Source: Burkholderiales bacterium
GTDB taxonomy: Bacteria > Pseudomonadota > Gammaproteobacteria > Burkholderiales > SG8-39
NCBI GenBank assembly: GCA_035632415.1
Contig: DASQGW010000203.1
Span: 1,176-65,175, forward strand
DNA length: 64,000 nucleotides
Reading direction: 5' to 3'
Numbering within the stretch: position 1 is the stretch's first letter; each line of letters opens with the position of its first letter. The position numbers and the translations under genes are program-made. Below the pieces are notes generated by a model that was not told the DNA's origin, did no database searches, and saw only the letters and a list, made by a program, of their open reading frames with translations. Of the stretch, positions 722 to 20,901 are shown piece after piece.

Positions 722-1747
722 CTACCCTATCTCGGCCGCGATCAACGCCTGCACGCCGCCTTGCGTTCGCCGCGCGACGACCCGAACGGCCACAGCATCC
801 AAGCACTCGCCGTCCGAAGAGGCCCACCACGACAGGTCTTCCACGGCGTCCATCTCTGCGTCCTGATCCTCAAGGATTCGGGCAATTACCGAGCGTTTAG
901 GGACGCGCATGTTCTCCGGAATGAAAAAGTTCTGCGCGCGCGCGGCTTCATTTGCCGTTACGCGCACCGCACGCAGAGCCGCCTCGGGGGCGTCCTCGAT
1001 TGCCACGGTCCCACGAGCAATGCGCTCCGCATCGCGCTTCTTCCGCGCCAGCTTGGCGTCGACGAGCAAGCACGGCGCCGGCCACGCCTGGAAGAAACCG
1101 AAAAGCGACGCCTGGGCGCTTGCTTCGGGGCACAGCCGTGCTTTCAGATCAGCGAAGGCGTCGAATGAGATCGGCCCTTTGGTGTGCTTTCGAACGATCT
1201 CGTCCCAGAACCCGATATTGCCGGCGATGGCATCCATTACGGATTCCTCGGGATCCTTTTCATCCGCCGGCACATGCGTCCGATAGAACTTCAGTCGCTG
1301 CTGGGGCGTGAGGGTAAGCAAATGTGCGAGCTCGTGCCACTTGGTGAAGTAGCTACGAAACGCTTTTTCTCCTCTGCAGTCGATCACCGAAACGAAGCGG
1401 CGCTGCCCCGGCTTCGGCGCCTTCAGAGTGTAGGTGATTCCAAACGTATGCGGGTGCGCCAACTCCCTCTCAATCTCGGCGAAGATGAACTCGCGGTCCG
1501 CTACGTACTGTTCCCGGATTTTTCGCAGATCCGCGTCGTTGTGCACCTCAAGGAACAACGTATCGACTTTCGTGGCGACCACTCGGAGCAGGTCGCTCAG
1601 CCGTTCGCACGGCACTTCCTTTAGGAATGAGCGCACCTGCTTACGCGCATAACGCAGGATGTCCTGCAGCGGATTTTCGCTCGGCTTCAAGCCGAGATCC
1701 TGCGCCAAAGCCAATACCTCAGGCTTATCTACGAGTCTTGGAGGCAC
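722..1747 (-). CDS. ImmA/IrrE-family zinc metallopeptidase (CapP-like)
   Basis: HEXXH motif in FTKWHELAHLLTL. GTG start overlaps the 3' end of the upstream XRE gene by 23 nt. This is the typical repressor-protease gene pair. Confidence 0.8.
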   Translation of the reverse strand: MPPRLVDKPEVLALAQDLGLKPSENPLQDILRYARKQVRSFLKEVPCERLSDLLRVVATKVDTLFLEVHNDADLRKIREQYVADREFIFAEIERELAHPHTFGITYTLKAPKPGQRRFVSVIDCRGEKAFRSYFTKWHELAHLLTLTPQQRLKFYRTHVPADEKDPEESVMDAIAGNIGFWDEIVRKHTKGPISFDAFADLKARLCPEASAQASLFGFFQAWPAPCLLVDAKLARKKRDAERIARGTVAIEDAPEAALRAVRVTANEAARAQNFFIPENMRVPKRSVIARILEDQDAEMDAVEDLSWWASSDGECLDAVAVRVVARRTQGGVQALIAAEIG

Positions 1748-2156
1748 TTTCGTAAGCCCCTTTTATCGCCTTATGTAGATTCTTCCAGTCATCGACCGTT
1801 CGATGCTTGCGAACCTTCGTGCTCCGCCTCGCTACCACGGCCTCATGTGCATCGAGGAGGGTAAGCGTCTCGCTATAAGTTAGGCCAAGCTCCTCTGCGG
1901 CCTGTGAAAGCTCAGGTGGAATTGATACTGGCCCTCGCGCCGACTCCTGTTTGACCTGTTCACCTCGCATTAAATAGTCGAGGGAGAAACCTAAAGCGTC
2001 GGCAATCTTCAGTGCGTTGTCTGCACTCACGTTTCGCTTATTGTTCTCGACATCACTTAGAAAGCCCTTACTTATCTGAGCCTTATCTGCTAATTGTTCT
2101 TGAGTCCAGCCCATTTTTTCTCTCGCTTCCCTGATCCTGTCCCCAGGGGTTGGCAT
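1725..2156 (-). CDS. XRE-family helix-turn-helix transcriptional regulator (CapH-like)
   Basis: N-terminal Cro/C1 HTH: IREAREKMGWTQEQLADKAQISKGFLSDVENNKRNVSADNALKIADALGFSLDYLM. Transcribed divergently from the Ubl operon. Confidence 0.85.
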   Translation of the reverse strand: MPTPGDRIREAREKMGWTQEQLADKAQISKGFLSDVENNKRNVSADNALKIADALGFSLDYLMRGEQVKQESARGPVSIPPELSQAAEELGLTYSETLTLLDAHEAVVARRSTKVRKHRTVDDWKNLHKAIKGAYESASKTRR

Positions 2157-2195: not shown

Positions 2196-2276
2196 ATAGC
2201 GAATTTGGCTCGCTTTCCTTGATGTCCGCTCGCAGTTCGCAATACAATATCTACACCGCTATACGAATCATAGCGG
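2196..2276. promoter_or_regulatory. Candidate operator(s) in the divergent promoter region
   Basis: Inverted repeat CCGCTAT-N7-ATAGCGG at 2256-2276, plus a third ATAGCG half-site at 2196-2201. All lie inside the 147-bp AT-richer intergenic region between the XRE gene and the Ubl operon. Confidence 0.3.
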
Positions 2277-2303
2277 CACACTTTGCGAAACAGGAGATCG
2301 AAG

Positions 2304-2471
2304 ATGCCTGCACCCATTGGAACCACAGCTAGAACCGGCGAAACCTGCCCCGAAAGTGGCGTCTGGGAAGTGACCAGCCGGCCGAGCACCACGGCGCCGA
2401 TCGCGAAGCGGAACCGCATGCCGCCCTATGGTGGCCAAGCGGTGACCTGGAAACTCATCAGACTCGCCTAA
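2304..2471 (+). CDS. Small (55 aa) leader protein of the Ubl operon, YjzC-like pattern
   Basis: ATG at 2304 is preceded by CAGGAGA (2291-2297). The sequence MPAPIGTTARTGETCPESGVWEV...IAKRNRMPPYGGQAVTWKLIRLA resembles small G-x-x-x-P-x-SG-x-W ... PP ... W-x-L proteins. The family assignment is tentative. Confidence 0.5.
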   Translation: MPAPIGTTARTGETCPESGVWEVTSRPSTTAPIAKRNRMPPYGGQAVTWKLIRLA

Positions 2472-2493
2472 CTCACGTAAGGAAGGAAAGCTC

Positions 2494-3150
2494 ATGACCG
2501 AAGCGCTAAAGGAAGCGTCCGCCGAACACGGCCAGAAATTCTTCATCGACATCGAGGGCACCATCCACGAGTGGTCCTCGCCGACGATCACCACCGAGCA
2601 GCTCGCGCAACTCGGTGGCTGGGACGTGTCCGCAGGGGTGATCGAGATCGACCCCGACAACAATGAGCGCACGCTCGCCCCCGGCGAGGTCATCGAGCTC
2701 AAGCCCGGGCACGGCTTCGCCAAGAAGGTCCGCTGGAAGCGAGGCGACAACGCCTTCGACGCGAGGCTGGACCTGGAGATGCAGCTCCTCCAGGGACATT
2801 TCGGAAAGGCCGTGACCCGCAACGGCGCGTGGTTCCAGGTAATTGACTATCCCGTTGCAGGCAAGGACTGGAACCGCGACAAGACGCCGGTTGCGTTCCG
2901 TGCACAGGTCGGCTATCCGGGCACGCCGCCTTACGGAATCTTCGTGCCCGCCGGCATCCGGTTTAATGGCGCTCCGCCGCAAAACTATCAGGAGCCAGCG
3001 GGTGACAAGCCGCCTTTCCCCGGCGACTGGGGGCTCTTTTCCTGGTCGCCTGAAGACGGGCAATGGCGCCCGGGCCCCACGCCGCGCGAGGGCTCCAACC
3101 TCCTCAACTTCACCCTGGGATTTGCGCACCGCTTCCGGCAGGGAGCCTGA
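2494..3150 (+). CDS. Ubiquitin-like (multiubiquitin-type beta-grasp) domain fused to an E2/UBC-like domain without cysteine
   Basis: The N-terminal part KFFIDIEGTIHEWSSPTITTEQLAQLGGWDVSAGVIEIDPDNNERTLAPGEVIELKPGHGF reads as Ubl-like. The C-terminal VGYPGTPPYGIFVPAGIRF... resembles the YPxxPPxxxF core of UBC/RWD folds. The 218-aa translation has no Cys. Operon partners are JAB and E1. Confidence 0.7.
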   Translation: MTEALKEASAEHGQKFFIDIEGTIHEWSSPTITTEQLAQLGGWDVSAGVIEIDPDNNERTLAPGEVIELKPGHGFAKKVRWKRGDNAFDARLDLEMQLLQGHFGKAVTRNGAWFQVIDYPVAGKDWNRDKTPVAFRAQVGYPGTPPYGIFVPAGIRFNGAPPQNYQEPAGDKPPFPGDWGLFSWSPEDGQWRPGPTPREGSNLLNFTLGFAHRFRQGA

Positions 3151-3152
3151 CT

Positions 3153-3683
3153 GTGGCGCTCATCAGCATCGGCGCGGCCGAGCTCGACCGGCTTCGCAGG
3201 CATCTGCTGAGCACGCCGCGTTGTGAGCAGGGCGCCTTTCTGTTCTGCCGGCACTCAGTCTCGGGCGGTGTCGACCACGTTTTCGCCTGTGAAGACTGGT
3301 CTCCCCTCAAGCGCTCCGACTTTGAAGTTCAGGCAGGCGACTACCTCGAGCTGACCGATGCCGCGCGCGCCCTGCTCATCAAGCAGGCGCATGACCGCGG
3401 CCTTTGCCTCGTGGAAAGCCATTCGCATCCCGGCCCGTATCCGGCGGCGTTTTCCTACTCCGACCTCACCGGCCTGGACGAATTCGTGCCGCACGTGCGC
3501 TGGCGGCTCCGCGGGCGACCCTATGCGGCGCTGGTGTTCGCGCCGAGCGGCTTTGACGGCCTTGCCTGGACCGATGGGCCGGGCACGCTGCCGCAGCAGC
3601 TCGTGGCTATCGAAACCGAGAAAGCGCGGCTTGCCGCGACCGGCTTGACCTTGGCTCGCACGGCAAGGGCAGCCCATGGATAG
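3153..3683 (+). CDS. JAMM/JAB-family metallo-isopeptidase (Prok-JAB type)
   Basis: GTG at 3153 lies 2 nt after the upstream stop, with GGCAGGGAG just upstream. Motifs are EQGAFLF (catalytic Glu) and ESHSHPGPYPAAFSYSD (HxH...S..D). Confidence 0.8.
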   Translation: MALISIGAAELDRLRRHLLSTPRCEQGAFLFCRHSVSGGVDHVFACEDWSPLKRSDFEVQAGDYLELTDAARALLIKQAHDRGLCLVESHSHPGPYPAAFSYSDLTGLDEFVPHVRWRLRGRPYAALVFAPSGFDGLAWTDGPGTLPQQLVAIETEKARLAATGLTLARTARAAHG

Positions 3684-4545
3684 GTTCGACCGCAACATCC
3701 GCTTCTTTGGCGCCGACGGCCAGGCGAAGCTGCGCAACGCGCATGTTGCGGTCGCGGGCTGCGGCGGCCTCGGTCAACACGTGATTCAGCAGCTCGCGTT
3801 CCTAGGCGTCAGCAAGCTCACGTTGATCGAGGACGAAGCGCTCAGCCGCAGCAACCTGAATCGATACATTCTGGCGCGGCACGACGACCCGATTCCCGGA
3901 ACCCACAAAATCGACAACGCGCTGCGCGCGATTTCGGCGATTGACCCGTCCATCGAGGTCACGCCCATCCGGAACTCGATCCGCTCGCGTGAGGCCTTCG
4001 AGGCGCTGCGCCCGGTACACAGCGTCTTCGGCTGCTTCGACAACGATGGAGCGCGGCTGATCCTGAATGAATACGCTAAAGCATATTCAAAGGAATACTA
4101 CGATCTTGCGAGCGACATCGAACAGGACGCCGGTCTGCGTTATGGAGGCCGCGTCGTGCGCGTCGACCACACTCCGGGTTGCCTAGTGTGCTTGGGGCAC
4201 ATCGATCTTGCCGCAGCCCGCGAGGACCTCGAGAGCGATGCCGCACGCCGGGACCGCGCCAAGATCTACGGCGTGGATGCCGACCTACTGGATGACGGCG
4301 GACCGTCCGTGGTATCCATCAACGGCGTCGTAGCGTCACTTGGCGCAACCGAGTACGTGCTCTCAGTGACGGGTATCCGATCGCCGAAACGGCTCCTGAC
4401 CTACCGCGGAGATCGCGGCATCGTAACTACCGGAAACGCGGACGCAACGCCAGGATGCTATTTCTGCGAAACCATCGCGGGTACCGGCGCTAGTGCTGCT
4501 GTCGAACGCTACATCATCACCGCGGCCGAGAGCGTCGCTGTCTAG
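3676..4545 (+). CDS. ThiF/MoeB-type E1-like adenylyltransferase
   Basis: VAVAGCGGLGQHV (nucleotide loop), EDEALSRSNLNRY, FDNDGARLILN, and two CxxC pairs (CLVC, CYFC). The start overlaps the JAB stop by 8 nt. Confidence 0.85.
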   Translation: MDRFDRNIRFFGADGQAKLRNAHVAVAGCGGLGQHVIQQLAFLGVSKLTLIEDEALSRSNLNRYILARHDDPIPGTHKIDNALRAISAIDPSIEVTPIRNSIRSREAFEALRPVHSVFGCFDNDGARLILNEYAKAYSKEYYDLASDIEQDAGLRYGGRVVRVDHTPGCLVCLGHIDLAAAREDLESDAARRDRAKIYGVDADLLDDGGPSVVSINGVVASLGATEYVLSVTGIRSPKRLLTYRGDRGIVTTGNADATPGCYFCETIAGTGASAAVERYIITAAESVAV

Positions 4546-5372
4546 GATTTTCTGTCGCCGCTCAAGCTGGCGATAGCCGCCTTCAGAACTTGAAGGCAGA
4601 TTTCGGCGGTGTGCTTGTCCGGTTTGAACCCGGAACTCATTTGCGCATAGGGATGAATGTAGTTTCTGAAGTCTCTAAGCGCGTGACTGAATTTCTTTAC
4701 GTCCAACTTCAGATAGCCGACCTCGCACGCGACATCGATCAAATTTGCAAGCGTCCACTCATGAAATTGCTTCGCGGCGCCAGCTTTGTCTTTTGGACAG
4801 TTCGGCGCCTGGTTGAACTCCTGTGGATTGGCGCTTGCCACACCGAGTAGCAATCCCTCCAGAATGCTTCCGCAATGAAACACCACCGCTAGCGGTGAAT
4901 CGGCCTTCAGGCAGCGGACCGCTTCGGAGAATCTCGACTCGAGAATTGGGGCCAAAGGGCCGGTAGTCGGGATTTTCTGTAGCGAGAGTGCCCCGTAGCT
5001 CTGCTTGAGGAACTCCTCGGCGGAATCCTTCTGCTGCACCGGTTTTCCGAGCAGCTTCTGAACAACATGATTTACGCGCTCGGCGAGCGCGGTTTCCTTG
5101 GCCGTGGGCTGCAGGGTCTTGTAGCGCCAGTACTCCAATAGGTCGGCGATCGTCTTGCCGACAACCGAGTCAGGTTCAAGTTCGACGAAGGCTCTGAGCC
5201 TTCTCGCCTTTGAATCTCCGTTCTTGGCGTACTTGTCTGCGTAAATGTCTATGCGAGCGCTCTCCCGAAAGAACTCGCTGAATGTCCTGTTCGAAAAATC
5301 CATGACATAGCCGCCGCCCATCGCAAAGAGTTCTTCAAGACACTCGCGCTCCAACATCTTCAGGCTACTCAT
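4542..5372 (-). CDS. HEPN-like / Abi-like protein encoded at the tail of the type I M-S operon
   Basis: The start overlaps the hsdS stop (ATGA-type, 5369-5372). The C-terminal helical region is WTLANLIDVACEVGYLKLDVKKFSHALRDFRNYIHP (R-x6-H, RN..H-like HEPN signature). The N-terminal GGYVMDFSNRTFSEFF...SKARRLRAF segment is common in genes embedded in R-M loci. Confidence 0.5.
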   Translation of the reverse strand: MSSLKMLERECLEELFAMGGGYVMDFSNRTFSEFFRESARIDIYADKYAKNGDSKARRLRAFVELEPDSVVGKTIADLLEYWRYKTLQPTAKETALAERVNHVVQKLLGKPVQQKDSAEEFLKQSYGALSLQKIPTTGPLAPILESRFSEAVRCLKADSPLAVVFHCGSILEGLLLGVASANPQEFNQAPNCPKDKAGAAKQFHEWTLANLIDVACEVGYLKLDVKKFSHALRDFRNYIHPYAQMSSGFKPDKHTAEICLQVLKAAIASLSGDRKS

Positions 5373-6721
5373 ACACGTTCGATGGCTTCCACAGCCTCTT
5401 CCACACTAAGCTCACCGGATATAAGTTTTGGCAGAAGGGTGTCGCGAAGTTCGGCGAGTGTTTCAGATTCCTGTTCTGTGGTTTGTATGCGATCAAGGAC
5501 CAGACCGGCCACCGAGTCGAACGCCCCAATGAGAAGCGATGGCGGGCAAGCAAACCGAAAGGACGGCACGGCATTCTTCGCAAGATGCAACACTGTCGTG
5601 CCTGTCGTATGCGCGTATGTGTGAGCCACAAATCTGTCACTGCAAGCCAAGAAATAAAGGAATGAGCGACGAATGTCGTCCCGGCTAGCTCGCACAATCA
5701 GTGTGTCGAGCGACGCCACTAACGTCCTAAACCTGCTCGTGGACCGCACAATTGCAGGACGACCGATCACCTCCGCGGCCTGTGTCACATCCGTACATGC
5801 GATGATGAGATCGCCGGAACCTACCACTTGTTCCGGTTTGTACCTCCCCACGAAGGGTTTCAGACCCTCAGAACGATAGCCGCCGCCACGCGCAAAGGAT
5901 TTGAGTGTAACTAGCGCGACACTCGATTCGACCAATTCTTCACTTGTGTAGGATCGCCCCTTGGTCGTTTCGATCAACCCTCCAAGCGCACATACTGTCC
6001 AGCCTTCCGGAATTTCGCCGATGTCCGACTCTATGAGGCGAGCCGGAAAAAGGTCCGCGAGAGTTTTGGCAAGCACAGGGACGCGGCCTTCTGATTTGGC
6101 GCGGACCGGGTCGAAGTCGACGAACCACGATTTGAAGAGCGCTCGTGCCGTCGCCTCCAAGGTTCCATCTATCCGACGGTTCAGCTCAATCTTGTCGTCA
6201 AGGGCTGCGAGGATGCTCGCGATGGTACGTTGAGTCTCGACATCAGGAAATCGAAAACGAAAATCATGTTGTTGCGAAATGCTGACGTAGTCAGCGGCCA
6301 TCGCGCCATGAGTCTTTACCCCGTCGAGAGCCGATTGAAACTCGTAACTGCGCATGAAGTAGAAAACAAAGCCTGGGTCGAGGACGTTGCGGTCGGTGAC
6401 ACGCCAATAAGCGACCTGCGGGGCAAACACGACGGGTGGCTGCTCCGGGCGCAGCCATCCTGCTCGGCCCACCGTCCCTTTCGTGATAAATGCAGCGTCT
6501 CCGGGTTGAGTAAGCTTCGCCGAGATGCGGCTAACGAACTCCGGCCTAATGTGGTCTACCGTGTTCGTATTAATCCAACCATCCCCTATGTCACCACCGC
6601 GGACAAAGGGCACTCCTTCCGAGCCTAGCTCCTCGTTGCGGACGCGATATCCATCAGAGATCCTAAGCGCCCCCTGATCCACAAGGTCACCGACGCGAAT
6701 CTCACACCAGTCAGCCGCCAT
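5369..6721 (-). CDS. hsdS: Type I restriction-modification specificity subunit
   Basis: Two target-recognition-domain halves are separated by conserved helices ([17 protein letters not shown] ... [17 protein letters not shown]). The gene overlaps hsdM by 11 nt. Confidence 0.85.
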
Positions 6722-8258
6722 ATCCTAGCCTCGCGAGTTTGGCTGCAATAGCGGCGTCGAGCTTCGCTGCATCGGCCTGCTGTTTGCGGAGTGTCGAGAT
6801 CAGCAGTTTGATTCTGCCCTCGAACGGTTCCCCGTTATCTTCCTGCGCTGCCGTGCCTACATAGCGGCCAGGCGTGAGAACATGGCCGTGCTCGCGGATC
6901 TCCTCTAGCGAGGTACTCTTGCAGAAGCCCGGGGTATCTTCGTATTTGCCGGCATCCTTCTCACCGCGCCAGGCGTGATAGGTCTTGGCGATTCGCGAGA
7001 GCTCGTCGTCGGTTAGCTCGCGATGGATGCGGTCCACCAGTTTTCCGAGCTTGCGAGCGTCGATGAAGAGGACATGGCCGCGGCGCTCGCGGAATTTGTG
7101 GTTTTTCTTGTCGCGCGCGAGGAACCAGAGGCAGGCGGGTATTTGTGTCGAATAGAAGAGCTGGCCGGGGAGCGCAACCATGCAGTCGACGAGGTCGGCT
7201 TCGACGAGGCTGCGTCGGATGTCGCCTTCGCCTGACTGATTGGATGACATCGAACCGTTCGCGAGCACGAAGCCTGCGAGCCCGGTAGGCGAGAGGTGGT
7301 GGACGATGTGCTGGACCCAGGCGAAGTTCGCATTGCTCGCGGGCGGGGCACCATATTTCCAGCGCTTGTCCTCGCGCAGGCGGTCGCCCCCCCAGTCGCT
7401 CACGTTGAAGGGCGGGTTGGCGAGGATGTAGTCGGCCTTGAGGTCGGGGTGGCGGTCGTTGTGGAAGGTGTCGCCGTGCTCGATCCTGCCCTCGATGCCG
7501 CGGATGGCGAGGTTCATCTTGGCGAGGCGCCACGTGGTGTAGTTGGATTCCTGGCCGTAGATGCTGATGTCGCCGAATTTGCCGCCGTGGGCGACGATGA
7601 ATTCCTCGGACTGGACGAACATTCCGGATGAGCCGCAGCAGGGGTCGTAGACACGGCCCTTGAAGGGCTCGAGCATTTCGACGAGGAGCTTGACCACGCA
7701 GCGCGGGGTGTAGAACTCGCCGCCCTTCTTGCCTTCGGCGCTCGCGAACTGCGAGAGGAAGTATTCGTAGACGCGGCCGAGCACGTCCTTGGACCGGCTC
7801 TCGGCGTCGCCGATGCGGATGTTGGAGACGAGGTCGATAAGCTGGCCGAGGCGCTGCTTGTCGAGCGCGGGGCGCGCGTACTCCTTCGGCAGTACGCCCT
7901 TAAGCGAGGGGTTGTCGCGCTCGATGCCCGCCATGGCTTCGTCCACGAGCTGGCCGATGGTCGGCTGTTTCGCCTGCGCCTTGAGCTTCGGCCAGCGAGC
8001 CTCGGGCGGCACCCAGAAGATGCCCTTCGCGCGGTATTCGTCCGGATCTTCGGGGTCGGCGCCTTGCTTCTTCTCGGCGTCGAGCTTGGCGTGCAGCTCT
8101 TCGAAGGCGTCGGAGATGTACTTGAGGAAGATCAGGCCGAGGACAACATGCTTGTACTCCGCGGCGTCCATGCTCCCGCGAAGCGCATCGGCCATGCGCC
8201 AGAGCTCGGCTTCGTAGCCGACGTTCGCGCCGTTGGAATTGCCTTTCTTCCCCGCCAC
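6711..8258 (-). CDS. hsdM: Type I restriction-modification N6-adenine DNA methyltransferase subunit
   Basis: [32 protein letters not shown] (HsdM N-terminus), GEFYTPR, DPCCGSGGMF-like motif I ([10 protein letters not shown]) and NPPF ([12 protein letters not shown]). The GTG at 8258 has an upstream GAGGGG; the longer ORF start at 8324 is an alternative. Confidence 0.9.
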
Positions 8259-8590
8259 AGCGTTCCCCTCGAATTCACGATAACACGGGCCCGCAACGCA
8301 CGCGCCAGTAGAAGCGACTGTCACGCGGTTGCAAATTCACGACGTGGGCCGCCACGTCGCAAGACCTGATTATCCCCAAGTCCTGAAACGCGCCGCCCAG
8401 GCGGCTTAGCTGCAATCCCCGCGCGCCCCTCAGCTCGAGGTGAAGGGGACGACAGCGGGAGCAGCTAGGCAAGCCGCCGAACGGGCGGCTTAAGCATTTC
8501 CATTCGTGTAGCTCCCCTCCCGTCCCCAGCGGGGAGGCGAAGAGAACTCCGCATGAGCAGCAGTTTTTTTTAACAGGCCAAGGAGGCCCA

Positions 8591-9220
8591 GTGCTCAGGC
8601 GCGAAGTCACCCATGCAACCGACCTCGATTTGCTGACCGTGCTTATCGGGGATCGCAAGAAGGCAGCGAAGCTATTCGCGAAGGCGAAGTTTTCGCTCTT
8701 TGCCCTGCTCCATTCCCAGCCCACCGAGAACGGGGACCTCTTCTGCGCCGAACGGGCGAGCGCCTACGGGGACGAGCCGATCATGAAGCTACAGGCGGCC
8801 GTGGAGCTTGCAGCCCGGACGCTCACCGAGCAGCTAACGAGCAAGACGAGCCTGACCAGCCCCGGAGCCGTGCGCGATCTGCTCAGGCTGAAACTCGCAG
8901 GCCTGCCGCACGAAGTCTTTATGTGCATCTACCTCGATGCTCAGCACCGGGTTATCGCCGTCGAGGAGCTTTTCCGGGGAACGCTGACACAGACAAGCGT
9001 TTATCCCCGCGAAGTAGTGAAGGCAGCGCTCCGAGCCAATGCCGCCGCAGTCATCTTCGCTCACAACCATCCCTCGGGCGTAGCGCAGCCCTCCCAAGCG
9101 GACGAGCTATTGACCCGCAACCTCCGGGAAGCGCTGTCCCTCGTCGAAATCAAGGTCCTCGATCACTTCATCGTCGCCGGCAATCAGGCGCTCAGCTTTG
9201 CCGAGCGAGGCCTTCTGTAA
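8591..9220 (+). CDS. radC: RadC-like JAB-domain protein
   Basis: C-terminal JAMM-like core [25 protein letters not shown] start preceded by AAGGAGG. Confidence 0.85.
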
Positions 9221-9264
9221 CCGTTTTTCCACGCAGTACAAACCAACCGAAAGGAGAAGTAAAG

Positions 9265-9603
9265 ATGGAATCAGCACAAGCACTCGCAGTCGTTCGCAGC
9301 CTTGCCAATGGGGTCGACCCGGAATCGGGAGAAGTCTTCCCGCCGGAGAGCACCTACCAGCGCCCGCTGGTGGTCCGAGCCCTCTACGAAGCCGCAAGCG
9401 CCTTGGAGCGCACCGAGCGCTTCGAGCGCCGCAAGTCTCAGATGCCCGCCAAGACGGGCGAGCCGTGGAGCGAGGACGAGGACCGTAAGCTCCTCGCCGC
9501 CTTCGACGCTGGCCGAGCGCTTCAAGAACTCGCCGCCGCGCATGAACGCACGATGGGCGCGGTACGGGCCCGCCTGCTCAAGTACGGGCGCATAAACGCT
9601 TAA
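9265..9603 (+). CDS. Small hypothetical protein with a Myb/SANT-like C-terminal helix bundle
   Basis: ATG preceded by AAGGAG (9251-9256). The C-terminus GEPWSEDEDRKLLAAFDAGRALQELAAAHERTMGAVRARLLKYG looks Myb-like. Followed by a terminator. Confidence 0.6.
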   Translation: MESAQALAVVRSLANGVDPESGEVFPPESTYQRPLVVRALYEAASALERTERFERRKSQMPAKTGEPWSEDEDRKLLAAFDAGRALQELAAAHERTMGAVRARLLKYGRINA

Positions 9604-9617
9604 GCGCCGTTCATTGA

Positions 9618-9644
9618 GGCCGGGATTAACAGTCCCGGCCTTTT
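9618..9644 (+). terminator. Rho-independent terminator after the 9265-9603 gene
   Basis: GGCCGGGA-ttaacag-TCCCGGCC followed by TTTT. Confidence 0.55.
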
Positions 9645-9653
9645 GTCGTCCAT

Positions 9654-9679
9654 AAAAAACGAGGTGCTGCGCCCCTCGT
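9654..9679 (-). terminator. Rho-independent terminator after the integrase gene
   Basis: On the minus strand: ACGAGG-ggcgcagca-CCTCGT followed by TTTTTT. Confidence 0.45.
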
Positions 9680-9689
9680 TGCTCCCGCC

Positions 9690-10970
9690 CTATGCCGCCT
9701 TGGCGGCCGAAATAGGGACGACGTTCCGCGATTTCAGTGCGTCCATGTGGTCAGCCCATTTTTGCAGCCAGCTTCGCGCCTCAGCGTCGTAGCTATGTCG
9801 GTCGTAAATGGCCGATACGGAATTGTCGACGTGATTCAGAATCCGATCCTGGACGACCCGCGGACAGCCGAGCCTCGCAAGTCCGGTTGCCACCGTCCGG
9901 CGCAGATCGTGAACTGTCCAGGGAACTTCGATGGGATCCTTGTTCCCGCTATTCGGTTCCATGTGGCGCGCAGTGTACTGGGCAAGCCCGAGCGCCTTTT
10001 GGGCGACGTGCTGACCCGCGATCCTGGACGGGAATACGAACGTCTTGTCGATTCCTTGCCGATACTTGAGAAGCTCGACGGCCTGCTCCGGAAGCATCGC
10101 GTCGTGCGGCTCACCGTTCTTCGTCTCGCGCATGGTCCAGACGCCCCGCTCGAGATCGATGTCCCGCCATCGCGCCGCGATCACTTCGCCGGACCGGCAG
10201 CCGGTCAACAGCACCAGCAGCAGCGATTCCCGAATGATCCGGCTATACGGACTGTGCGGCAGCCATCTCAGGAAGCTGGCGAGCTCGGCATCGGTCAAGG
10301 CGCGCTTCCTGCGCACCTGCGACGCCCCTTTGATCCCGAGCGTCGGCGAGTTGAAGGAATCCGGCAACCGCCCCTGCTCCACAGCGTGCACGTAGGCGCA
10401 GCGGATGCGGGATAGAAGCTGCGTGGCCTTGCGCGGATGCTTGAGTAGCGTCGGGCGGATTAGCTCGTCCTGGAGCTCGCGCCGCGTGAGCTCGCTTGCC
10501 GATTTGGTGCCGAACAACGGAACAAAGTCTCGCCGCAGCAGACGGGCGGATTCGGCGCCGCGCTTCTGCTTCGAGAGCGCTTCCTTGATGTATTCCTCTA
10601 CCAGGTCGCCGGCGGTGTACTCGCGCTCTCGCTCCGCCGCGCGCTTGCGCATTGCCTCCTCGCGCGCTTTTCGTTTCTCTAGTTGCGGGTCCTTGCCCTG
10701 CTGTCGCTCGAGGCGCTTTTTCAGTGCGGCATCGCGCGCCTTCGCGAGCGTCAATGGGCCGACGTCGCCCAGGATAATCTCGCGCAGAGCCCTGTCCCGC
10801 GAGCGGTAGCGATAGAAGAAGACCTTTTTGCCCGTGGCCGAGGAACGCACGCGCAGTCCAGCCACTTGCGTGTCGCCGCGGTCCTCTCCGGGCGCCATGT
10901 CGGCGATAATCGCCGCGGTCAGGGGCCCTGGTTTTTTCAGTGTAGGTTTTAGTGTAGGTAGCTTCGACAT
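9690..10970 (-). CDS. Tyrosine recombinase / phage-type integrase
   Basis: Catalytic residues in LLTGCRSGEV (R), HDLRRT (H-x-x-R) and SAIYDRHSY (Y). The ATG at 10970 is preceded by GGGAGG; the ORF-track start at 10982 is an alternative. Confidence 0.9.
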   Translation of the reverse strand: MSKLPTLKPTLKKPGPLTAAIIADMAPGEDRGDTQVAGLRVRSSATGKKVFFYRYRSRDRALREIILGDVGPLTLAKARDAALKKRLERQQGKDPQLEKRKAREEAMRKRAAEREREYTAGDLVEEYIKEALSKQKRGAESARLLRRDFVPLFGTKSASELTRRELQDELIRPTLLKHPRKATQLLSRIRCAYVHAVEQGRLPDSFNSPTLGIKGASQVRRKRALTDAELASFLRWLPHSPYSRIIRESLLLVLLTGCRSGEVIAARWRDIDLERGVWTMRETKNGEPHDAMLPEQAVELLKYRQGIDKTFVFPSRIAGQHVAQKALGLAQYTARHMEPNSGNKDPIEVPWTVHDLRRTVATGLARLGCPRVVQDRILNHVDNSVSAIYDRHSYDAEARSWLQKWADHMDALKSRNVVPISAAKAA

Positions 10971-11015
10971 CGTGCCTCCCATTGGTTCGACCTACACCGC
11001 CACCTACACTGAAAA
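10934..11015. repeat. 26-bp imperfect inverted repeat bracketing the integrase RBS and start codon
   Basis: TTTTCAGTGTAGGTtttaGTGTAGGT (10934-10959) pairs with ACCTACACcgccACCTACACTGAAAA (10990-11015). 22 of 26 positions are complementary. Each arm contains a tandem GTGTAGGT unit. Confidence 0.6.
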
Positions 11016-11165
11016 GACCGGCAAGGACTTGCAAGAACTTGCCTGGACTTGTACAGAAAAGCTGTCGGTGAAGGTCACTTTTCCTTGGAACGACAAGACC
11101 TTATAACGCAAAAGGCGAGCGCCGACAAGGGCCCCGGTGAAATCGGGAATTCAGGTCACACGCCC

Positions 11166-13670
11166 ATGATGCAGCAATACCTGCGCATCAAGGGCGAGCA
11201 TCCGAACGTCCTCGTGTTCTACCGGATGGGCGACTTCTACGAGCTCTTCTACGACGACGCCGAGAAGGGCGCGCGGCTGCTCGACATCACCCTCACCTCG
11301 CGCGGCCAGTCGGCGGGCGCGCCGGTGAAGATGGCAGGCGTCCCGGTGCATTCCGTCGAGCAATACCTCGCAAGACTGGTGAAGCTCGGCGAATCGGTGG
11401 CGATTTGCGAGCAGGTGGGCGATGTGGCGAGCGCCAAGGGCCCGGTGGATCGGCAAGTGACGCGCATCGTCACCCCGGGAACGCTCACCGACTCGTCGCT
11501 CCTCGAAGACAAGGCCGACAACATCCTGCTTTCCATCTCCAGGGATAAGAGCACGGTGGGCCTCGCATGGCTCTCGCTCGCCAGCGGCACGCTGCGCGTC
11601 GCCGAAGTGGCGCCGCAAGCATTGCAGAACGAGCTGCGCCGCATCGCTCCAGCGGAGGTCCTGGTCGCCGAAGGCGTCGTGCTCGACGGCTATTTCACGA
11701 CACGGCTGCCGCCCTGGCACTTCGACATCGAGGCCGGCAAGCGCAAGCTCTTGAAGCAGCTCGGCGCGGGCACTCTCGCCGGCTTCGGGGTGGAGGACAT
11801 GACGCTCGCGGTCGGCGCCTGCGGCGCGCTCCTCGAGTACGCCGGCAAGACCCAGGGCCAGGCACTCGCGCATGTCACCGCAGTCACCGCCGAGCGGGCA
11901 GGCGAGTACGTGCGCCTCGACGCGGCGACGCGACGCAATCTCGAGCTCACGGAAACGCTGCGCGGCGAGCCTGCGCCCACGCTCTTTTCACTGTTGGACG
12001 AATGCGCCACCGGCATGGGCAGCCGCCTGCTGCGTCACTGGCTGCACCACCCGTTGCGCGACCGCGAAGCGCTGAAGCACCGTCATGAGGCCGTGGCGTG
12101 CCTTGTTGACTCGTTCAATGAGATTCACCGCGTGCTGCGCGGCTTCTCGGACGTAGAGCGCATCACGGCCCGCGTTGCGCTGAAAAGCGCTCGCCCGCGC
12201 GAGCTTGCCGGCCTGCGCGAGACTCTCCAGCAGCTTGGCGCGCTTCGCGACGCCACGAATCGAGGTGAGACCCCTCCTCTTCTTCGGCAATTGGTCTCGG
12301 ATCTCGCGACCCCCGACGAGTGCATCGCCCTTCTGCAGAAGTCGCTGAAGGAGGAGCCGGCGGCGCGCGTCGTCGACGGCGGCGTGATCGCCGACGGCCA
12401 TAGCGCGGAGCTCGATGAGCTGCGCGGATTGCAGACCAACGCCGGCGCCTTCCTCGCGGAGCTCGAGGCGCGCGAGCGCGCGCGCACGGGCATCCCGAAC
12501 CTGAAGGTCGCCTACAACTCGGTGCATGGGTACTACATCGAGGTGAGCAACGCGCAAGCGGAGAAAGTGCCCGTCGACTACCGCCGGCGGCAGACGCTGA
12601 AAAATGCCGAGCGCTATATCACGCCGGAGCTGAAGACTTTCGAGGACAAGGCGCTCTCCGCTCGCGACCGAGCGCTCGCGCTGGAGAAATCGCTCTACGA
12701 CGCCCTGCTCGACTCTCTGAACGCGCACGTCCCTCAGTTGCAGCGCATTGCGCGGGCGCTGTCGCAGCTCGACGTGCTGGCGGGCTTCGGCGCGGCCGCG
12801 GCGAGACGCAGCTATGTCCGGCCGCAGTTCGTGGACGAACGGCAGATCGAGATCGACGCCGGGCGACACCCGGTGGTGGAAGCACAGATCGACAATTTCA
12901 TTGCCAATGATTGCCGCCTCTCGGCCACGCGCGCGCTGCTGCTCATTACCGGCCCCAACATGGGCGGCAAGTCCACCTACATGCGCCAGGTCGCGCTCAT
13001 CGTGCTCATGTCGCACATCGGGTCCTTCGTGCCGGCCAAGGGCGCCCGCATCGGGCCGATCGACCAGATCTTCACGCGCATCGGCGCTGCCGATGACCTC
13101 GCCGGCGGTCGCTCGACCTTCATGGTCGAGATGACCGAGAGCGCATCGATACTGCACAACGCCACGGCGCAAAGCCTCGTGCTGATGGATGAGGTCGGGC
13201 GCGGCACGTCGACCTTCGATGGCCTCGCGCTCGCCTGGGCGATCGCGCGGCACTTGGTCGAGCGCAACCGCTCCCTCAGCCTCTTCGCCACGCACTACTT
13301 CGAGATGACGCGCCTCGCGCTCGAGTACAAGGAGGTTAAGAACGTGCACCTGGATGCGGTCGAGCACAAGGACACGGTCGTCTTCCTCCATGCGGTGGAG
13401 GAAGGCCCGGCGAGCCAGAGCTACGGCCTGCAGGTCGCCGCGCTCGCCGGCGTGCCGAAGGACGTGATCCGCCGGGCGCGCAAGTATCTCGAGCTTCTCG
13501 AGGAATCGGCCGTCGGCCGCGGCGGCCAGGACGATTTGTTCGCCAGGACGCGCGCCGCCGAACCGGAACCGCCAGCCGACGCGCTGCGCGACGAGCTTGC
13601 GAAGATCAATCCCGACGAGCTCTCGCCGCGCGAGGCGCTCGAGCTCCTTTACCGCCTCAAGAAGCTCTAG
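11166..13670 (+). CDS. mutS: DNA mismatch repair protein MutS
   Basis: [33 protein letters not shown]-terminus, Walker [14 protein letters not shown], and STFMVEM. The internal ATG at 11166 is chosen over the ORF-track start at 11049. Confidence 0.95.
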
Positions 13671-14633
13671 TCACCACTTCGGCTTCAGGCCGAGGAGCCT
13701 GGCCGAGTCGTTGAGCTGTTTCGTCTGGTCCTCGATCGACTGGGCGAATTCAGCTGCGTTGCCCGGCACGTTGAGCTGCGCGGTGGCAGCGAGGCGCTCG
13801 GCGACCAGCGAGTCCTGCGATACGGTCTTGATGTCGGCGGCAATCCGATTCTTCGCCGCCTCCGAGAGATTGCTCGAACGCGCCGCGATGATGCCGACCA
13901 GCCCTTCGAAGTCGAGCCCCGGGTAGCCGAGCTCCGAAACGGTGGGAAGGTCGAGGCCCGGCACGCGGTGACGCGCCTGCACAGCGAGGAGCTTCACCTT
14001 GCCCGACTGCACCGCGGGCCGCACGATCGCATAGGCGGAGCTATAGAGATGCAGGCGCTCCGAGATGAGGTCGTTCACCGCCTCGGCCGGGACCTTGTAG
14101 CGCACATGCGCCGCCTCGATGCCCTGCGTCTTGAGGAAACCCTCGAGGATGATGTCGGTCATGGTGACCGCGGTCGTCCAGTTCAGCCAGCCGCGCTTCT
14201 CCCTGGCCATCGTGAGGATGTCCTTCAGCGAGCCGACGTTCATGCTCGCCGGCACTTCGAGCGTGACCACGGTGCCGGAGACGCGCGCCACGGGCACCAG
14301 CTCCTTCGGGTCGTAGGGAAGCTGCTCGAGGCTGTAAGGATGGCCGACGAAGTTCGCCGTCGGTCCCCACATCAGGACGTGATCGTCCTTGGCCTGGATC
14401 ACTGCGTTGATGGCGATGACGCCGTCGCCGCCGGGCTTGTTCTCCACGATCACCGGCTGGCCCCACATCCGGGTGAGGCGGTCGGCATAGAGCCGCGCGC
14501 CGATATCCGCGCCCGATCCGGGTCCGAGAGAAAGAACGAACCGCACCGGCTTGTGCGGCCAGTCCTGCGCGAGCGCCGAAGCGGCGGGAAACGCCAGCGC
14601 GAACGCGGCGAGAATGCGAAACAGCGTCTTCAT
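13671..14633 (-). CDS. Bug-family (TctC-like) tripartite tricarboxylate transporter substrate-binding protein
   Basis: Signal peptide MKTLFRILAAFALAFPAASALAQDWP, then KPVRFVLSLGPGSGADIGARL, typical of Bug proteins. Its stop abuts the mutS stop. Confidence 0.85.
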   Translation of the reverse strand: MKTLFRILAAFALAFPAASALAQDWPHKPVRFVLSLGPGSGADIGARLYADRLTRMWGQPVIVENKPGGDGVIAINAVIQAKDDHVLMWGPTANFVGHPYSLEQLPYDPKELVPVARVSGTVVTLEVPASMNVGSLKDILTMAREKRGWLNWTTAVTMTDIILEGFLKTQGIEAAHVRYKVPAEAVNDLISERLHLYSSAYAIVRPAVQSGKVKLLAVQARHRVPGLDLPTVSELGYPGLDFEGLVGIIAARSSNLSEAAKNRIAADIKTVSQDSLVAERLAATAQLNVPGNAAEFAQSIEDQTKQLNDSARLLGLKPKW

Positions 14634-18156: not shown

Positions 18157-18304
18157 CTATCTTTTTGTCGAGCGATGCACGTTTTCGGGGTGCGGATTAT
18201 CGCACGTAGAGGCGCCGCGACGCCCGCGTACCAGTTTCGTCTACAGCCAAATCCCTAGGGAATAAAACTCGTTGCCCGCGCACGATCAGCGCCCCATCAT
18301 AGCG

Positions 18305-20275
18305 ATGACGATGAATCATCTTGCACGGCCGCTCGCGCCGTTGCTCATCGGCATCGGCGCGGCGATCCTGGTCCTCACGGCTGGCGTGGAGATCGTGTCG
18401 GCGCTGCGCGCCTGGCTCGCCGGCGGCGGGCCGTGGCCGCGCGAGCTGATGCTGCATGTCCTCATTGCCGGCGCCGCCCTGCTGCTCGCCTCGGCGGTGA
18501 TCATCAACCGGCGCTCGACGCAGCGCATGGAAGAAGCCGAAAGCGCGCTGCGCGAGAGCGAAGAGCGGCTGCGGCTCATCGCCAACAACGTCCCGGCGCT
18601 CATCTCCTACGTTGACCGCGACCAGCGCTACCGCTACTCCAACCGCACCTATGACGAGTGGTTCGGCATCCCGCACGAGGGCATGCAGGGCCGCACGATC
18701 GCCGAAGTGTTCGGCGACCAGGCCTACAGCCGGATGCGCCCGGAAATCGAGCGCGTGCTCGCCGGCGCCAACGTCCAGTTCGAGCTCGCCATGGGAGAAG
18801 GCGAGCGGCGGCGCACGCTGCAGGTCGCCTGCGTGCCGCACCTTGGCACGGAGGGGGAAGACGAAGGCGAGGTGCTCGGCTTCTACGTGCTCGCCAACGA
18901 TGTGACGCAGCTGAAGCGCGCGCAGGAGGACTTGCGCTACGCGGCGATCCAGCTGCAGCACGACGCGCGGCGGCTGGAATTCCTCGCGCACCACGACACC
19001 CTCACCGGGCTCCCCAACCGCGCGATGTTCGCCGAGCGCGCTCGCGAGTCCGTCGCGCACGCGCGCCGCCACCAGAAGACCTGCGCGTTCCTCTTCCTCG
19101 ACCTCGACAACTTCAAGACCGTCAACGACACCCTCGGCCATGACGTGGGCGACTCGCTGCTCAAGATCATCTCGTCGCGCCTGCGCGCTTCGGTCCGCGG
19201 CGAGGACTTCATCGCGCGCATCGGCGGCGACGAGTTCTGCGTGCTGCTCCAGGACATCGCCGATCCGCGCGAAGCCGCCGCCGTCGCGCAGAAGCTCCTG
19301 CACGAGCTCGGCAAGCCCTACCGCATCCGCGAGCACCAGGTGACTTCCGGCGCGAGCATCGGCATCGCGTGCGTGCCGCAGGATGGCGACGACGTCGCGA
19401 CGCTCTTGCGCCTTGCCGACCTTGCGATGTACCGAGCCAAGGAGCTCGGCCGCAACGGCTACCAGTTCTTCTCCGCGATGCTGAACGAAAACGCCGAAGC
19501 GGCGAGCGCCATGGTGGAGGGGCTGCGCCATGGGCTTGCGCGGAACGAGCTGTTCCTCGTCTATCAGCCGCGCGTCGACATCGCGACGCGCCAGGTCGTG
19601 GGCGCCGAGGCGTTGCTGCGCTGGCGCCATCCGCGCTATGGCGTCCTTGCTCCCGAGTCGTTCCTGCCCCTGGCCGACGACACGGGGCTGCTCGTGCCGA
19701 TCGGCGCCTGGGCGCTGCGCGAAGCCTGCCTGCAGGGCAAGCGCTGGATCGACGAGGGCATCGCGCCGCTCAGCGTCGTGGTGAACGTGACCTCGCGGCA
19801 GCTGCGCGACGGGCGCCTCGGCGCCGAAGTGCAGGCGGCGCTCGAGGCGAGCGGCCTGCCGCCCGGGTCGCTTCTGGTCGAGGTGCCCGAGTCGGTCGTG
19901 CGCGAGGTGCCCGAATCGCTCGAGGCTGCGCTGATCGCCATCACCGACCGCGGCGCCCGCCTTTCGGTGGACGACTTCGGCACGGGCTACGCGTCGCTGC
20001 CCGCGCTGCAGCGCCTCCGCGCGAGCACGGTGTGCATCGATCGCAAGCTCATCGCCGGGGTGCCGACCGATGCCGAGCGCGCCGGGCTCGCGCGCGCGCT
20101 CATCGCACTCGCACGGGGCATGAATTTCGAAGTGGTCGCCAAAGGCGTGGAGAGCCACGCACAGCGCGAATTCCTCGCCGACGCCGGCTGCCGTATCTGC
20201 CAGGGCGATCTCTTCGCCGCGCCCAATCCGGCGGACGTCGTTGCGCCCATGCTCAGGGCCCGACTGGCAGCGTAA
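18305..20275 (+). CDS. Membrane-anchored PAS-GGDEF-EAL cyclic-di-GMP signalling protein
   Basis: TM N-terminus, a PAS region (ISYVDRDQRYRYSN...), GGDEF (RIGGDEFCVLL) and EAL (ELFLVYQP..., DDFGTGYASL). Confidence 0.9.
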   Translation: MTMNHLARPLAPLLIGIGAAILVLTAGVEIVSALRAWLAGGGPWPRELMLHVLIAGAALLLASAVIINRRSTQRMEEAESALRESEERLRLIANNVPALISYVDRDQRYRYSNRTYDEWFGIPHEGMQGRTIAEVFGDQAYSRMRPEIERVLAGANVQFELAMGEGERRRTLQVACVPHLGTEGEDEGEVLGFYVLANDVTQLKRAQEDLRYAAIQLQHDARRLEFLAHHDTLTGLPNRAMFAERARESVAHARRHQKTCAFLFLDLDNFKTVNDTLGHDVGDSLLKIISSRLRASVRGEDFIARIGGDEFCVLLQDIADPREAAAVAQKLLHELGKPYRIREHQVTSGASIGIACVPQDGDDVATLLRLADLAMYRAKELGRNGYQFFSAMLNENAEAASAMVEGLRHGLARNELFLVYQPRVDIATRQVVGAEALLRWRHPRYGVLAPESFLPLADDTGLLVPIGAWALREACLQGKRWIDEGIAPLSVVVNVTSRQLRDGRLGAEVQAALEASGLPPGSLLVEVPESVVREVPESLEAALIAITDRGARLSVDDFGTGYASLPALQRLRASTVCIDRKLIAGVPTDAERAGLARALIALARGMNFEVVAKGVESHAQREFLADAGCRICQGDLFAAPNPADVVAPMLRARLAA

Positions 20276-20368
20276 GGCGTAAGAGTCGGTCAGCGGCGAC
20301 ACATGCGCCGCTGGGACCAGCCGCTCGATCCGGCAGGCCGCCGTGACTTGTGTCAGGATTCGCCCCTT

Positions 20369-20863: not shown

Positions 20864-20880
20864 ACTCGGGATTAGACTGA

Positions 20881-20900
20881 GTCTCCTCCCGGGAGGAGAC
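20881..20900 (+). promoter_or_regulatory. Perfect 20-bp palindrome containing the Shine-Dalgarno of the cupin gene
   Basis: GTCTCCTCCC|GGGAGGAGAC ends 1 nt before ATG 20902. Confidence 0.6.
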
Positions 20901-20901
20901 C

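Follow-up and report, generated by a model that had tools for sequence, protein, structure and literature searches.

The window, that is the whole 64-kb stretch of Burkholderiales bacterium DNA that was analysed, carries on its plus strand four closely spaced ORFs at 2283-2471, 2494-3150, 3063/3153-3683 and 3676-4545, which are separated, in this order, by a 22-nt gap, a 2-nt gap and an 8-nt overlap. The ORF list thereby reproduced the layout given in an earlier sequence-only reading of this DNA. An independent gene call on an identical metagenome contig gave a 176-aa JAB protein and a 55-aa product of the first gene. The last three ORFs encode a fusion of a ubiquitin-like (Ubl) and an E2-like domain, a JAB peptidase and a ThiF-type E1. 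The ThiF and Multi_ubiq scores, 187 homologue clusters and 69 syntenic genome loci that keep the order Ubl(-)E2, JAB, E1 demonstrate that these are more than chance ORFs. The operon had been described as a four-gene unit; the conserved genes are three, and the first ORF has no homologue at any of the 69 related loci. The island holding the cassette and its regulators is bounded by an integrase, and restriction-modification genes as well as other defence-type genes adjoin the cassette, in agreement with the proposed defence-type island.

The 218-aa product of the second gene (2494-3150) contains no cysteine, as had been noted before. Its residues 1-84 (2494..2745, plus strand), which end in WKRG84, form a single beta-grasp domain of the multi-ubiquitin family according to Pfam (Multi_ubiq, E 2.5e-5, at the gathering score), AF2 and Foldseek. 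The AF2 model of the fusion protein (pLDDT 91.5) had Bub multi-ubiquitin proteins, BubA and BubB as its best structural matches, and for the Ubl domain Foldseek matched both BubA 9ea8_B and Bub multi-ubiquitin structures with a probability of 1.0. R83-G84 is invariant in the family. In 36 of the 69 loci the Ubl is a separate gene, the stop codon lying exactly after the G84-equivalent in 30 of them and after a tail of 1-4 residues in the other 6. An exhaustive search likewise found that standalone Ubls stop at the G84 profile position and that standalone E2s begin just past it. As standalone Ubl genes stop at or just after the matching glycine, the comparative data support G84 as the predicted maturation site and end of the mature Ubl.

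The remainder of the protein (residues 85-218; 2746..3150, plus strand) was assigned by profile, hhalign and Foldseek comparisons as a cysteine-free E2-like domain of the BubB/Prok-E2_E type. The Ubl-E2 family profile reached Citrobacter BubB (9eae_C) with E 1.2e-5, hhalign of the E2-like domain against BubB gave a probability of 94.9% (E 4e-8) and Foldseek a TM of 0.65 to 9eae_C. Only the family profile reached BubB; phmmer searches of the PDB with Ubl-E2 or JAB returned nothing meaningful, and no PADLOC model (2023 library) matches either protein. Prok-E2_E (PF14462) does not match the window protein; among the 120 listed homologues, 14 carry it. Across 63 sequences the invariant polar residues of the domain are R91, E95, Y147 (2932-2934, plus strand), S183 (3040-3042, plus strand), N202 and R213, while no cysteine, histidine, lysine or aspartate is invariant. 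Y147 aligns with Asp299 of BubB. Of three alignments, two cover the loop and put S183 at +4 or at -2 of BubB S333, and one leaves the loop unaligned; a manual aromatic-Ser pairing would make the two serines equivalent. Since few BubB homologues were retrieved (6), the profile-profile alignment is shallow and that of the catalytic loop lacks confidence. As the register of S183 relative to S333 cannot be fixed, the domain may be inactive or work with a different residue.

The third gene (3153..3683, plus strand, GTG start at 3153) encodes a JAMM/JAB zinc peptidase of 176 aa. Its match to Prok-JAB (E 6e-5, 23.3 bits) lies just below the cut-off of 25, and residues E25, E88, H90, H92, S101 and D104 are invariant in 67/67 sequences; the catalytic residues are also kept at loci whose Ubl needs no processing. 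BLASTP aligned the protein to the BubC domain with E 3e-4. Like those of the window, which overlap by the 8 nt mentioned above, the JAB and E1 genes of 54 out of 60 related loci are separate; in the other 6 they are fused. The 289-aa ThiF-type E1 adenylating enzyme (3676..4545, plus strand; Pfam ThiF E 1e-35) has G28/G30/G33, R63, D122, the CxxC motif C169/C172 and Y198-G199 invariant in 61/61 sequences, and a second CxxC motif (C261/C264) conserved at ≥90%. Y198 (4267-4269, plus strand) is located in the crossover loop, in which any cysteine occurs in only 2 of the 61 sequences, and aligns within 2 residues of Y370 of Citrobacter BubCD. E1 matched this BubCD with E 9e-12 over residues 23-231 (BLASTP E 3e-13). 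The N-terminal Rossmann half scored best with MoeB (E 2.5e-16), and MccB and PaaA matched as well. All NCBIfam MoeB/ThiF scores were below their cut-offs, the best being 83.7 bits against a cut-off of 266, and the E1-E2 models of PADLOC match the E1 region only. All motifs quoted in the sequence-only reading are present and fall on family-invariant residues of JAB and E1. Of the Pfam families it had named, ThiF and Multi_ubiq were found, whereas Prok-JAB stayed below its cut-off and Prok-E2_E did not match the window protein.

No DUF6527/BubE turned up in the 64-kb window or in 68 of the 69 loci when three seeds were used in tblastn, jackhmmer and motif searches. The sole exception (L026) has one DUF6527 gene convergent to the operon and a second one farther along beside prophage-lysis-like genes. 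The sequence-only reading had overlooked both the missing BubE and the altered active-site residues of the E2. No moa/thi, molybdopterin, thiamine or microcin genes were present in the window or in the conserved flanks of the 69 loci, no conserved downstream effector was found across the related loci, and the cassette has no recognisable toxic effector. At five loci, which come from Methylophilus, Methylotenera and an unclassified proteobacterial MAG, E1 is followed by a small protein with two transmembrane segments. The neighbours of the Aquimarina locus, considered as CapK/CapS, are a TPR histidine kinase and a response-regulator-like protein. Viral contigs almost entirely lack the cassette, which gave 1 match there.

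Upstream of the cassette and divergent from it lies a gene for a CapH-like Cro/C1-type HTH repressor (1725..2156, minus strand; Pfam HTH_3 E 3e-19), which in PADLOC matched capH with E 1.6e-14 and a control protein with E 2.3e-15. The end of this gene is overlapped by 23 nt by that of a 341-aa protein with a HELAH motif (722..1747, minus strand), a putative CapP/ImmA/IrrE-like metallopeptidase. The latter gave zero matches in Pfam, NCBIfam, PADLOC and the PDB, and its single-sequence AF2 model was unusable (pLDDT 38.5). A profile of the M78 peptidases of related loci matched it in the HExxH/HELAH segment only (E 0.02). An M78 peptidase occupies the equivalent position in about 42 related loci, and at one locus (L012) a homologue of the 341-aa protein (32% identity) lies beside a homologue of the HTH protein (42% identity). 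From its motif and position the 341-aa protein is putatively CapP-like, with the neighbouring repressor as its presumed substrate. Counting the window, 45 loci have HTH and/or M78 peptidase genes upstream. CapH/CapP pairs consist of an HTH repressor and an M78 (ImmA/IrrE) zinc metallopeptidase with a GAF domain, are encoded divergently from the operon they regulate, keep company mainly with immune operons and have been linked to 6e/Bub operons in published work; regulators of this type respond to DNA damage. The divergent CapH/CapP-like pair had gone unnoticed in the sequence-only reading.

Between the repressor gene and the cassette, a consensus scan yielded a promoter-like site, TTGATG-18-TACAAT (2219-2248, plus strand), followed by a 12-pair inverted repeat (2252-2280, plus strand) that may serve as operator. 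The first gene of the putative transcript has its own RBS and encodes a conserved 55-aa protein (2304..2471, plus strand), starting, in the independent gene call, at the ATG at 2304 and not at the TTG at 2283. Across phyla, this protein has at least 662 homologue clusters with identities of 73-89%, is under protein-level selection and adjoins M78/HTH or WYL regulators in 32 of its 69 informative loci. It is thus a real protein that lies outside the conserved Ubl cassette and is part of a separate recurring module beside Cap regulators. The idea of a YjzC-like protein had no support from Pfam.

Of the known systems, the cassette is closest to Type I Bub (formerly 6E.1/DUF6527), which consists of BubAB, BubCD and BubE (Ye, Gong, Chambers & Corbett, bioRxiv 10.1101/2024.11.21.623953; PDB 9EA4, 9EA8, 9EAE and 9EAV). 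There, JAB cuts the Ubl-E2 fusion after a conserved glycine, and the cysteine-less cascade proceeds through Tyr and Ser oxyester intermediates (bioRxiv 10.1101/2024.11.21.623953). The Pfam, Foldseek and BubB/BubCD matches agree with the sequence-only reading in that a Ubl-E2 fusion, a JAB and a ThiF-type E1 make up a prokaryotic ubiquitin-like cassette, and place it in the 6E/Bub lineage. The statement that the fused, cysteine-less architecture was uncharacterised is out of date, because Bub is by now a characterised oxyester pathway that works without cysteine. The window cassette shares with Type I Bub a Ubl of the multi-ubiquitin family that is joined to a BubB-fold E2 and predicted to be freed at a conserved glycine, the JAB peptidase, the homodimer-type ThiF E1 with an invariant tyrosine in a crossover loop devoid of cysteine, the lack of a catalytic cysteine anywhere, and frequent CapH/CapP-like regulators. 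In contrast to Type I Bub, the DUF6527/BubE serine protease, reportedly found in all Bub operons, is missing; JAB and E1 are separate genes and not fused as in BubCD; the Ubl consists of one beta-grasp domain with RG at its end; and E1 has two CxxC motifs, which the aligned Citrobacter BubCD does not contain. The E2 of Type I Bub has an invariant serine at the canonical Cys position together with invariant His and Asp. Where BubB has Asp299, Ser333 and His335, the window family has a tyrosine at the Asp position, no invariant histidine and, in uncertain register, Ser183. Type II Bub (6E.2; BubA, BubBD and BubE) has the cysteine-free Tyr/Ser chemistry that is predicted for the cassette and shares with it the multi-ubiquitin-type Ubl and the type of regulators, but is distinguished by an E2-E1 fusion, a JAB that is usually missing, the presence of BubE and a catalytic serine paired with Lys and His. 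Type II CBASS Cap2/Cap3 also combines an E1 adenylation domain and a JAB peptidase with CapH/CapP control, which in the window is putative; the window cassette has neither a CD-NTase nor an E2-E1 fusion, and CBASS conjugates the cyclase, not a Ubl.

Taken together, the cassette is likely to be a stress-inducible, cysteine-free Ubl conjugation system of the Bub (6E) lineage that is devoid of BubE. We infer the chemical steps of its cascade by homology. The CapH-like repressor would hold the operon off until DNA damage or infection activates the CapP-like peptidase and the repressor is cleaved. JAB, by analogy with Citrobacter BubCD, would cut the Ubl-E2 pre-protein after Gly84, and the homodimeric ThiF-type E1 would adenylate the Gly84 carboxylate and take over the Ubl as an oxyester on Tyr198 of its crossover loop. 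From there the Ubl would pass to the E2 domain, where Ser183 is the most likely acceptor and Tyr147 stands in place of Asp299 of BubB, and finally to lysines of target proteins. Since BubE is missing, the removal of conjugates is probably a further task of JAB. There is no evident target or effector.

That the E2-like domain is dead and acts only as an adaptor for E1 docking or target binding, as Aravind's group first predicted for 6E, is improbable, though worth considering. The adenylated Ubl would then be transferred directly or the system would be non-conjugating, and JAB would be purely a maturase. The lack of any invariant Cys, His, Lys or Asp, the missing confident alignment of the catalytic loop with BubB and the failure of the Prok-E2_E model to hit the window protein speak for such an adaptor; the invariance of S183, Y147, N202, R91, E95 and R213 across many phyla is not readily accounted for by a pure scaffold, and JAB is intact even where maturation is unneeded. 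A sulfur carrier of the MoaD/ThiS kind, or an MccB-like peptide adenylation in place of protein conjugation, is very improbable. The adenylation-domain fold and the CxxC...CxxC motifs are indeed shared with MoeB/ThiF, to which the Rossmann half is closest, and MccB and PaaA match too. This alternative fails on the absence of moa/thi neighbours and on E1 scores far under every MoeB/ThiF cut-off; moreover, sulfur-transfer partners, a rhodanese domain and molybdopterin, thiamine or microcin genes are lacking, an E2-fold protein, fused to the carrier or encoded after it, and JAB are present, and the regulators are CapH/CapP-like.

A Bil-type system, in which an ISG15-like Ubl is conjugated by thioesters to phage tail proteins, can hardly be entertained. 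BilABCD comprises the same general functions (Ubl, E2, JAB, E1) in defence-island context and is reported to work through cysteine thioesters and to possess a large E1 that contains tandem adenylation domains and a Cys domain, its anti-phage role through tail-protein modification being proven (Hor et al., 2024; Chambers et al., 2024). The Bil-like label of the sequence-only reading is already contradicted by an E2 without catalytic cysteine and by an E1 of 289 aa that has a single ThiF domain and lacks the inactive adenylation domain and the Cys domain of the IAD-AAD-CYS architecture; in addition, Pfam and Foldseek assign the Ubl to the multi-ubiquitin (Bub) type, and the best PDB relatives are Bub proteins. 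As to the biological role, the cassette could be anti-phage or serve a general stress response. The sequence-only reading had called Bub systems anti-phage, while phage protection by a Bub operon has so far not been demonstrated (PMC13373217). This, the regulators of a DNA-damage-responsive type, the integrase-bounded island and the missing toxic effector would fit a cassette that works for the mobile island or in a general response to DNA damage, for instance through modification of proteins of the host or the element, a possible role to which we give less than even weight; the restriction-modification and other defence-type neighbours, the predominance of CapH/CapP at immune operons and the near-absence from viral contigs speak against it.

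The cassette represents a system related to Bub that, as far as the sequences tell, is without one Bub enzyme and has other predicted catalytic residues. The clade may, in a tentative proposal that we rate almost as high as its opposite, constitute a third, BubE-less Bub type with a Ser183/Tyr147 pair or Tyr147 as acceptor and no His, Asp or Lys helper, in which one JAB matures the Ubl and reverses conjugation and most copies are controlled by DNA-damage-sensing HTH/ImmA-type regulators. As the published Bub catalogue was built from DUF6527-containing operons, it could not capture such a clade. The overall picture of bacterial ubiquitin-like systems is unchanged by it. Given the fact that Bub systems are the only ubiquitin-like cascades known to work without cysteine, a clade with altered E2 residues and no second protease would be a natural comparison for the residues of the oxyester relay and for the purpose of BubE, and its three-protein cassette would offer a smaller system for reconstitution.

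Four plus-strand open reading frames were found where the sequence-only reading had placed them, with gaps of 22 nt and 2 nt and an overlap of 8 nt (ORF listing), and the same products were called independently on an identical metagenome contig. In the metagenome calls, the first gene encodes 55 aa and starts with an ATG at 2304 behind a GGAG, and the JAB peptidase (3153-3683, +) has 176 aa and a GTG start at 3153. The anticipated Pfam families were recovered in part: ThiF matched the E1 (3676-4545, +; E 1e-35) and Multi_ubiq matched residues 18-73 of the 218-aa protein (2494-3150, +; E 2.5e-5, 24.8 bits, cut-off 24.5), whereas Prok-JAB stayed slightly below its cut-off of 25 (E 6e-5, 23.3 bits) and Prok-E2_E did not match the 218-aa protein. 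Of the 120 listed homologues of this protein, which contains no cysteine, 14 carry a Prok-E2_E annotation.

From 114 homologues, AlphaFold2 modelled the 218-aa protein with confidence (mean pLDDT 91.5), giving the expected N-terminal beta-grasp followed by a helix/four-strand/helix domain. Among solved structures, the first domain best matched the Bub multi-ubiquitin proteins 9CD2, 9D5A, 9D59, 8U38 and 9D5B and BubA (9EA8_B), and the second Citrobacter BubB (9EAE_C, TM 0.65, 128 columns), with eukaryotic UBC enzymes ranking lower. Sequence comparisons agree with these matches: the family profile recovered BubB (E 1.2e-5) and, more weakly, a multi-ubiquitin protein (E 0.002), a small BubB alignment matched the family with 94.9% probability (hhalign), and Citrobacter BubCD aligned to E1 residues 23-231 (E 9e-12; BLASTP E 3e-13) and its BubC domain to the JAB (E 3e-4). 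The locus can be assigned to the Bub/6E lineage with good support. Two other assignments were weighed against these matches, a Bil system and a sulfur carrier pathway; for the latter, the E1 scored far under the cut-offs of all MoeB/ThiF NCBIfam models.

Relatives were sought in one genome per species, and 69 loci were found in Nitrospira (86% identity), Beta- and Gammaproteobacteria, Planctomycetota, Acidobacteriota, Dehalococcoidia, Gemmatimonadota, Kribbella, Meiothermus and others, with the order Ubl(-)E2, JAB, E1 in every sufficiently long locus. An exhaustive profile search (E <= 1e-3) yielded 707 representative proteins, including Ubls and E2s encoded on their own and fusions that carry three Ubl domains; the cassette is nearly absent from viral contigs (a single match). 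The Ubl-E2 fusion occurs in 31 loci and the window, while a separate Ubl gene stops exactly after [KR]RG at the G84 position in 30 loci and carries a tail of 1-4 residues past it in six. Since R83-G84 is invariant in the family alignments and standalone Ubls end at G84, this glycine is the predicted C-terminus of the mature Ubl. The JAB residues E25, E88, H90, H92, S101 and D104 are invariant in 67 of 67 sequences, and the catalytic residues are intact also where the Ubl needs no processing. Judged by this conservation, the JAB must have a further task besides maturation of the fusion, for which deconjugation would be the obvious candidate.

The 6E/DUF6527 operons were renamed Bub by Ye, Gong, Chambers and Corbett (bioRxiv 10.1101/2024.11.21.623953), whose catalogue is restricted to DUF6527-containing operons. 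Type I Bub comprises BubAB (Ubl-E2 fusion), BubCD (JAB-E1 fusion) and BubE (DUF6527, a Ser/His protease); JAB cuts after a conserved Gly of BubAB, the E1 works via a crossover-loop Tyr (Y370), the E2 via Ser S333, flanked by the invariant His335 and Asp299, and the intermediates are oxyesters throughout (bioRxiv 10.1101/2024.11.21.623953). The fused, cysteine-less architecture, which had been taken as uncharacterised, has therefore already been characterised. Using Citrobacter BubE, E. coli BubE and Pfam-verified DUF6527 as seeds, tblastn, jackhmmer and motif patterns found no DUF6527/BubE in the 64-kb window or in 68 of the 69 loci, and clustering of the flanking ORFs of related loci found no other conserved accessory gene. 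The exception, locus L026, has two DUF6527 copies (Pfam E 8e-12). One (9032-9481, -) has an N-terminal hydrophobic segment and lies convergent to the E1, 49 nt apart; the other (13075-13803, -) adjoins genes that look like a prophage lysis module, with endolysin-like features seen by eye, so DUF6527 may also occur in phages.

In contrast to Type I Bub, JAB and E1 are separate in the window and in 54 of 60 related loci; as they are fused in the other six, the split is variable and not diagnostic. The six fused ORFs (L036, L039, L041, L046, L049, Dehalococcoidia; L062, Latescibacterota) have 457-463 aa, as in BubCD, and in these loci the Ubl is its own gene ending in RG, so that the clade has every fused/split combination. 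Just six polar residues are invariant across 63 E2 domains (R91, E95, Y147, S183, N202 and R213), none of them a Cys, His, Lys or Asp, and an inactive E2 was considered as an alternative to a serine- or tyrosine-dependent one. BubB Asp299 is robustly aligned to Y147. S183 and BubB S333 share a loop, in which S183 is offset by +4 (HMMER) or -2 (MAFFT) and which hhalign leaves unaligned; the two serines would become equivalent if aromatic-Ser pairs were matched by hand. The crossover loop of the E1 holds an invariant Y198-G199, and a Cys occurs in this loop in no more than 2 of 61 sequences; the CxxC motifs of the E1 (C169/C172 and C261/C264) are missing from the aligned Citrobacter BubCD sequence.

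The first ORF (2304-2471, +), which had been counted as part of a four-gene operon, is a real gene but does not belong to the cassette: all 69 related loci lack it. Its homologues form at least 662 clusters (73-89% identity) in Proteobacteria, Bacteroidota, Verrucomicrobiota and Actinomycetota; loci L070-L076 and L078-L163 have the gene, and eight viral contigs carry it. Amino-acid identity of 76-80% versus 35-49% at third codon positions indicates selection at the protein level. It belongs to no Pfam family, its consensus is PIGTTARTGETCPESGVWxVVGxPSTTAPIAKGNRMPPYxGxAVTWKLIxYA, and no description was found in the consulted papers on Cap regulators. In a separate set of 69 loci carrying this gene with enough upstream sequence, an M78 peptidase (21), a CapH-like HTH (20) or a WYL (CapW-like) regulator (5) lies just upstream in jointly 32, where the 55-aa gene stands first. 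It precedes the Ubl operon in the window and a type II CBASS in L080/L081, and in L082/L083 it is the sole cargo facing the regulator pair.

Divergent to the window operon lie a CapH-like Cro/C1 HTH gene (1725-2156, -; PADLOC capH E 1.6e-14) and, overlapping it, a gene for a 341-aa HELAH protein (722-1747, -); the intergenic region holds a promoter-like site (2219-2248) followed by a 12-pair inverted repeat (2252-2280). The 341-aa protein had no match in any library search, an M78 profile aligning only around HELAH (E 0.02), and gave no usable single-sequence structure prediction. Its position suggests that it is CapP-like, supported by about 42 related loci with a clear Peptidase_M78 and/or HTH-M78 fusion there. 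CapH/CapP are published as DNA-damage (ssDNA) sensors, their location beside 6e systems is already in the literature, and both occur in 31% of catalogued Bub operons (bioRxiv 10.1101/2024.11.21.623953). Directly downstream of the CapP-like gene, a 138-aa HNH nuclease (298-714, -) has a C-terminal glycine-zipper (membrane-like) tail; homologues adjoin the 55-aa protein in L084/L085, L080/L081 (between WYL regulator and CBASS) and L093, with none in the 69 Ubl-E2 loci.

Downstream and convergent, hsdM (6711-8324), hsdS (5369-6721) and a DUF4145-like gene (4542-5372) form one minus-strand operon (4542-8324) with no hsdR nearby. The DUF4145-like protein (276 aa, weak Pfam match) has an R-x6-H HEPN-like motif noticed by eye, and its gene, the last of the operon, overlaps the E1 stop by 4 nt. 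The right-hand island edge (8591-10982) is probably marked by the genes for a RadC-like JAB protein (8591-9220) and for a tyrosine integrase (9690-10982, -; Arm DNA-binding domain) that abuts mutS (11049-13670). G+C is 0.54-0.65 in this region and 0.65-0.70 beyond; these features place the cassette in an integrated island. The window yielded no tRNA gene. Outside the island, two long ORFs (18197-20683, -, 828 aa; 20790-21704, +, 304 aa) without Pfam match at E <= 0.001 may not be real genes, given the high-G+C DNA. Among the relatives, five loci from Methylophilus, Methylotenera and an unclassified proteobacterial MAG (L005 8972-9211, L006 8487-8759, L007 8972-9244, L009 6694-6972, L011 8987-9286) encode a 79-99-aa hydrophobic protein that begins within 20 nt of the E1 stop, looks two-transmembrane, has no Pfam match and may act as an accessory or effector specific to the lineage. 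Other small proteins just 3' of the cassette are YjzC-like (L035 9126-9320, +; Pfam E 1.5e-5) or DUF2188-like by eye (L066 9438-9677, +); DUF2188 has been linked with HTH/metallopeptidase operons (Lau et al.).

By homology, Ubl-Gly84 would be activated with AMP and relayed via E1 Tyr198 and E2 Ser183 (or Tyr147) to a target Lys, with JAB in a dual role and DNA damage inducing the cassette. A role other than defence was considered beside an antiphage one; phage protection by a Bub operon had not been demonstrated as of June 2026. The locus is of moderate interest, chiefly for workers on bacterial ubiquitin-like systems.
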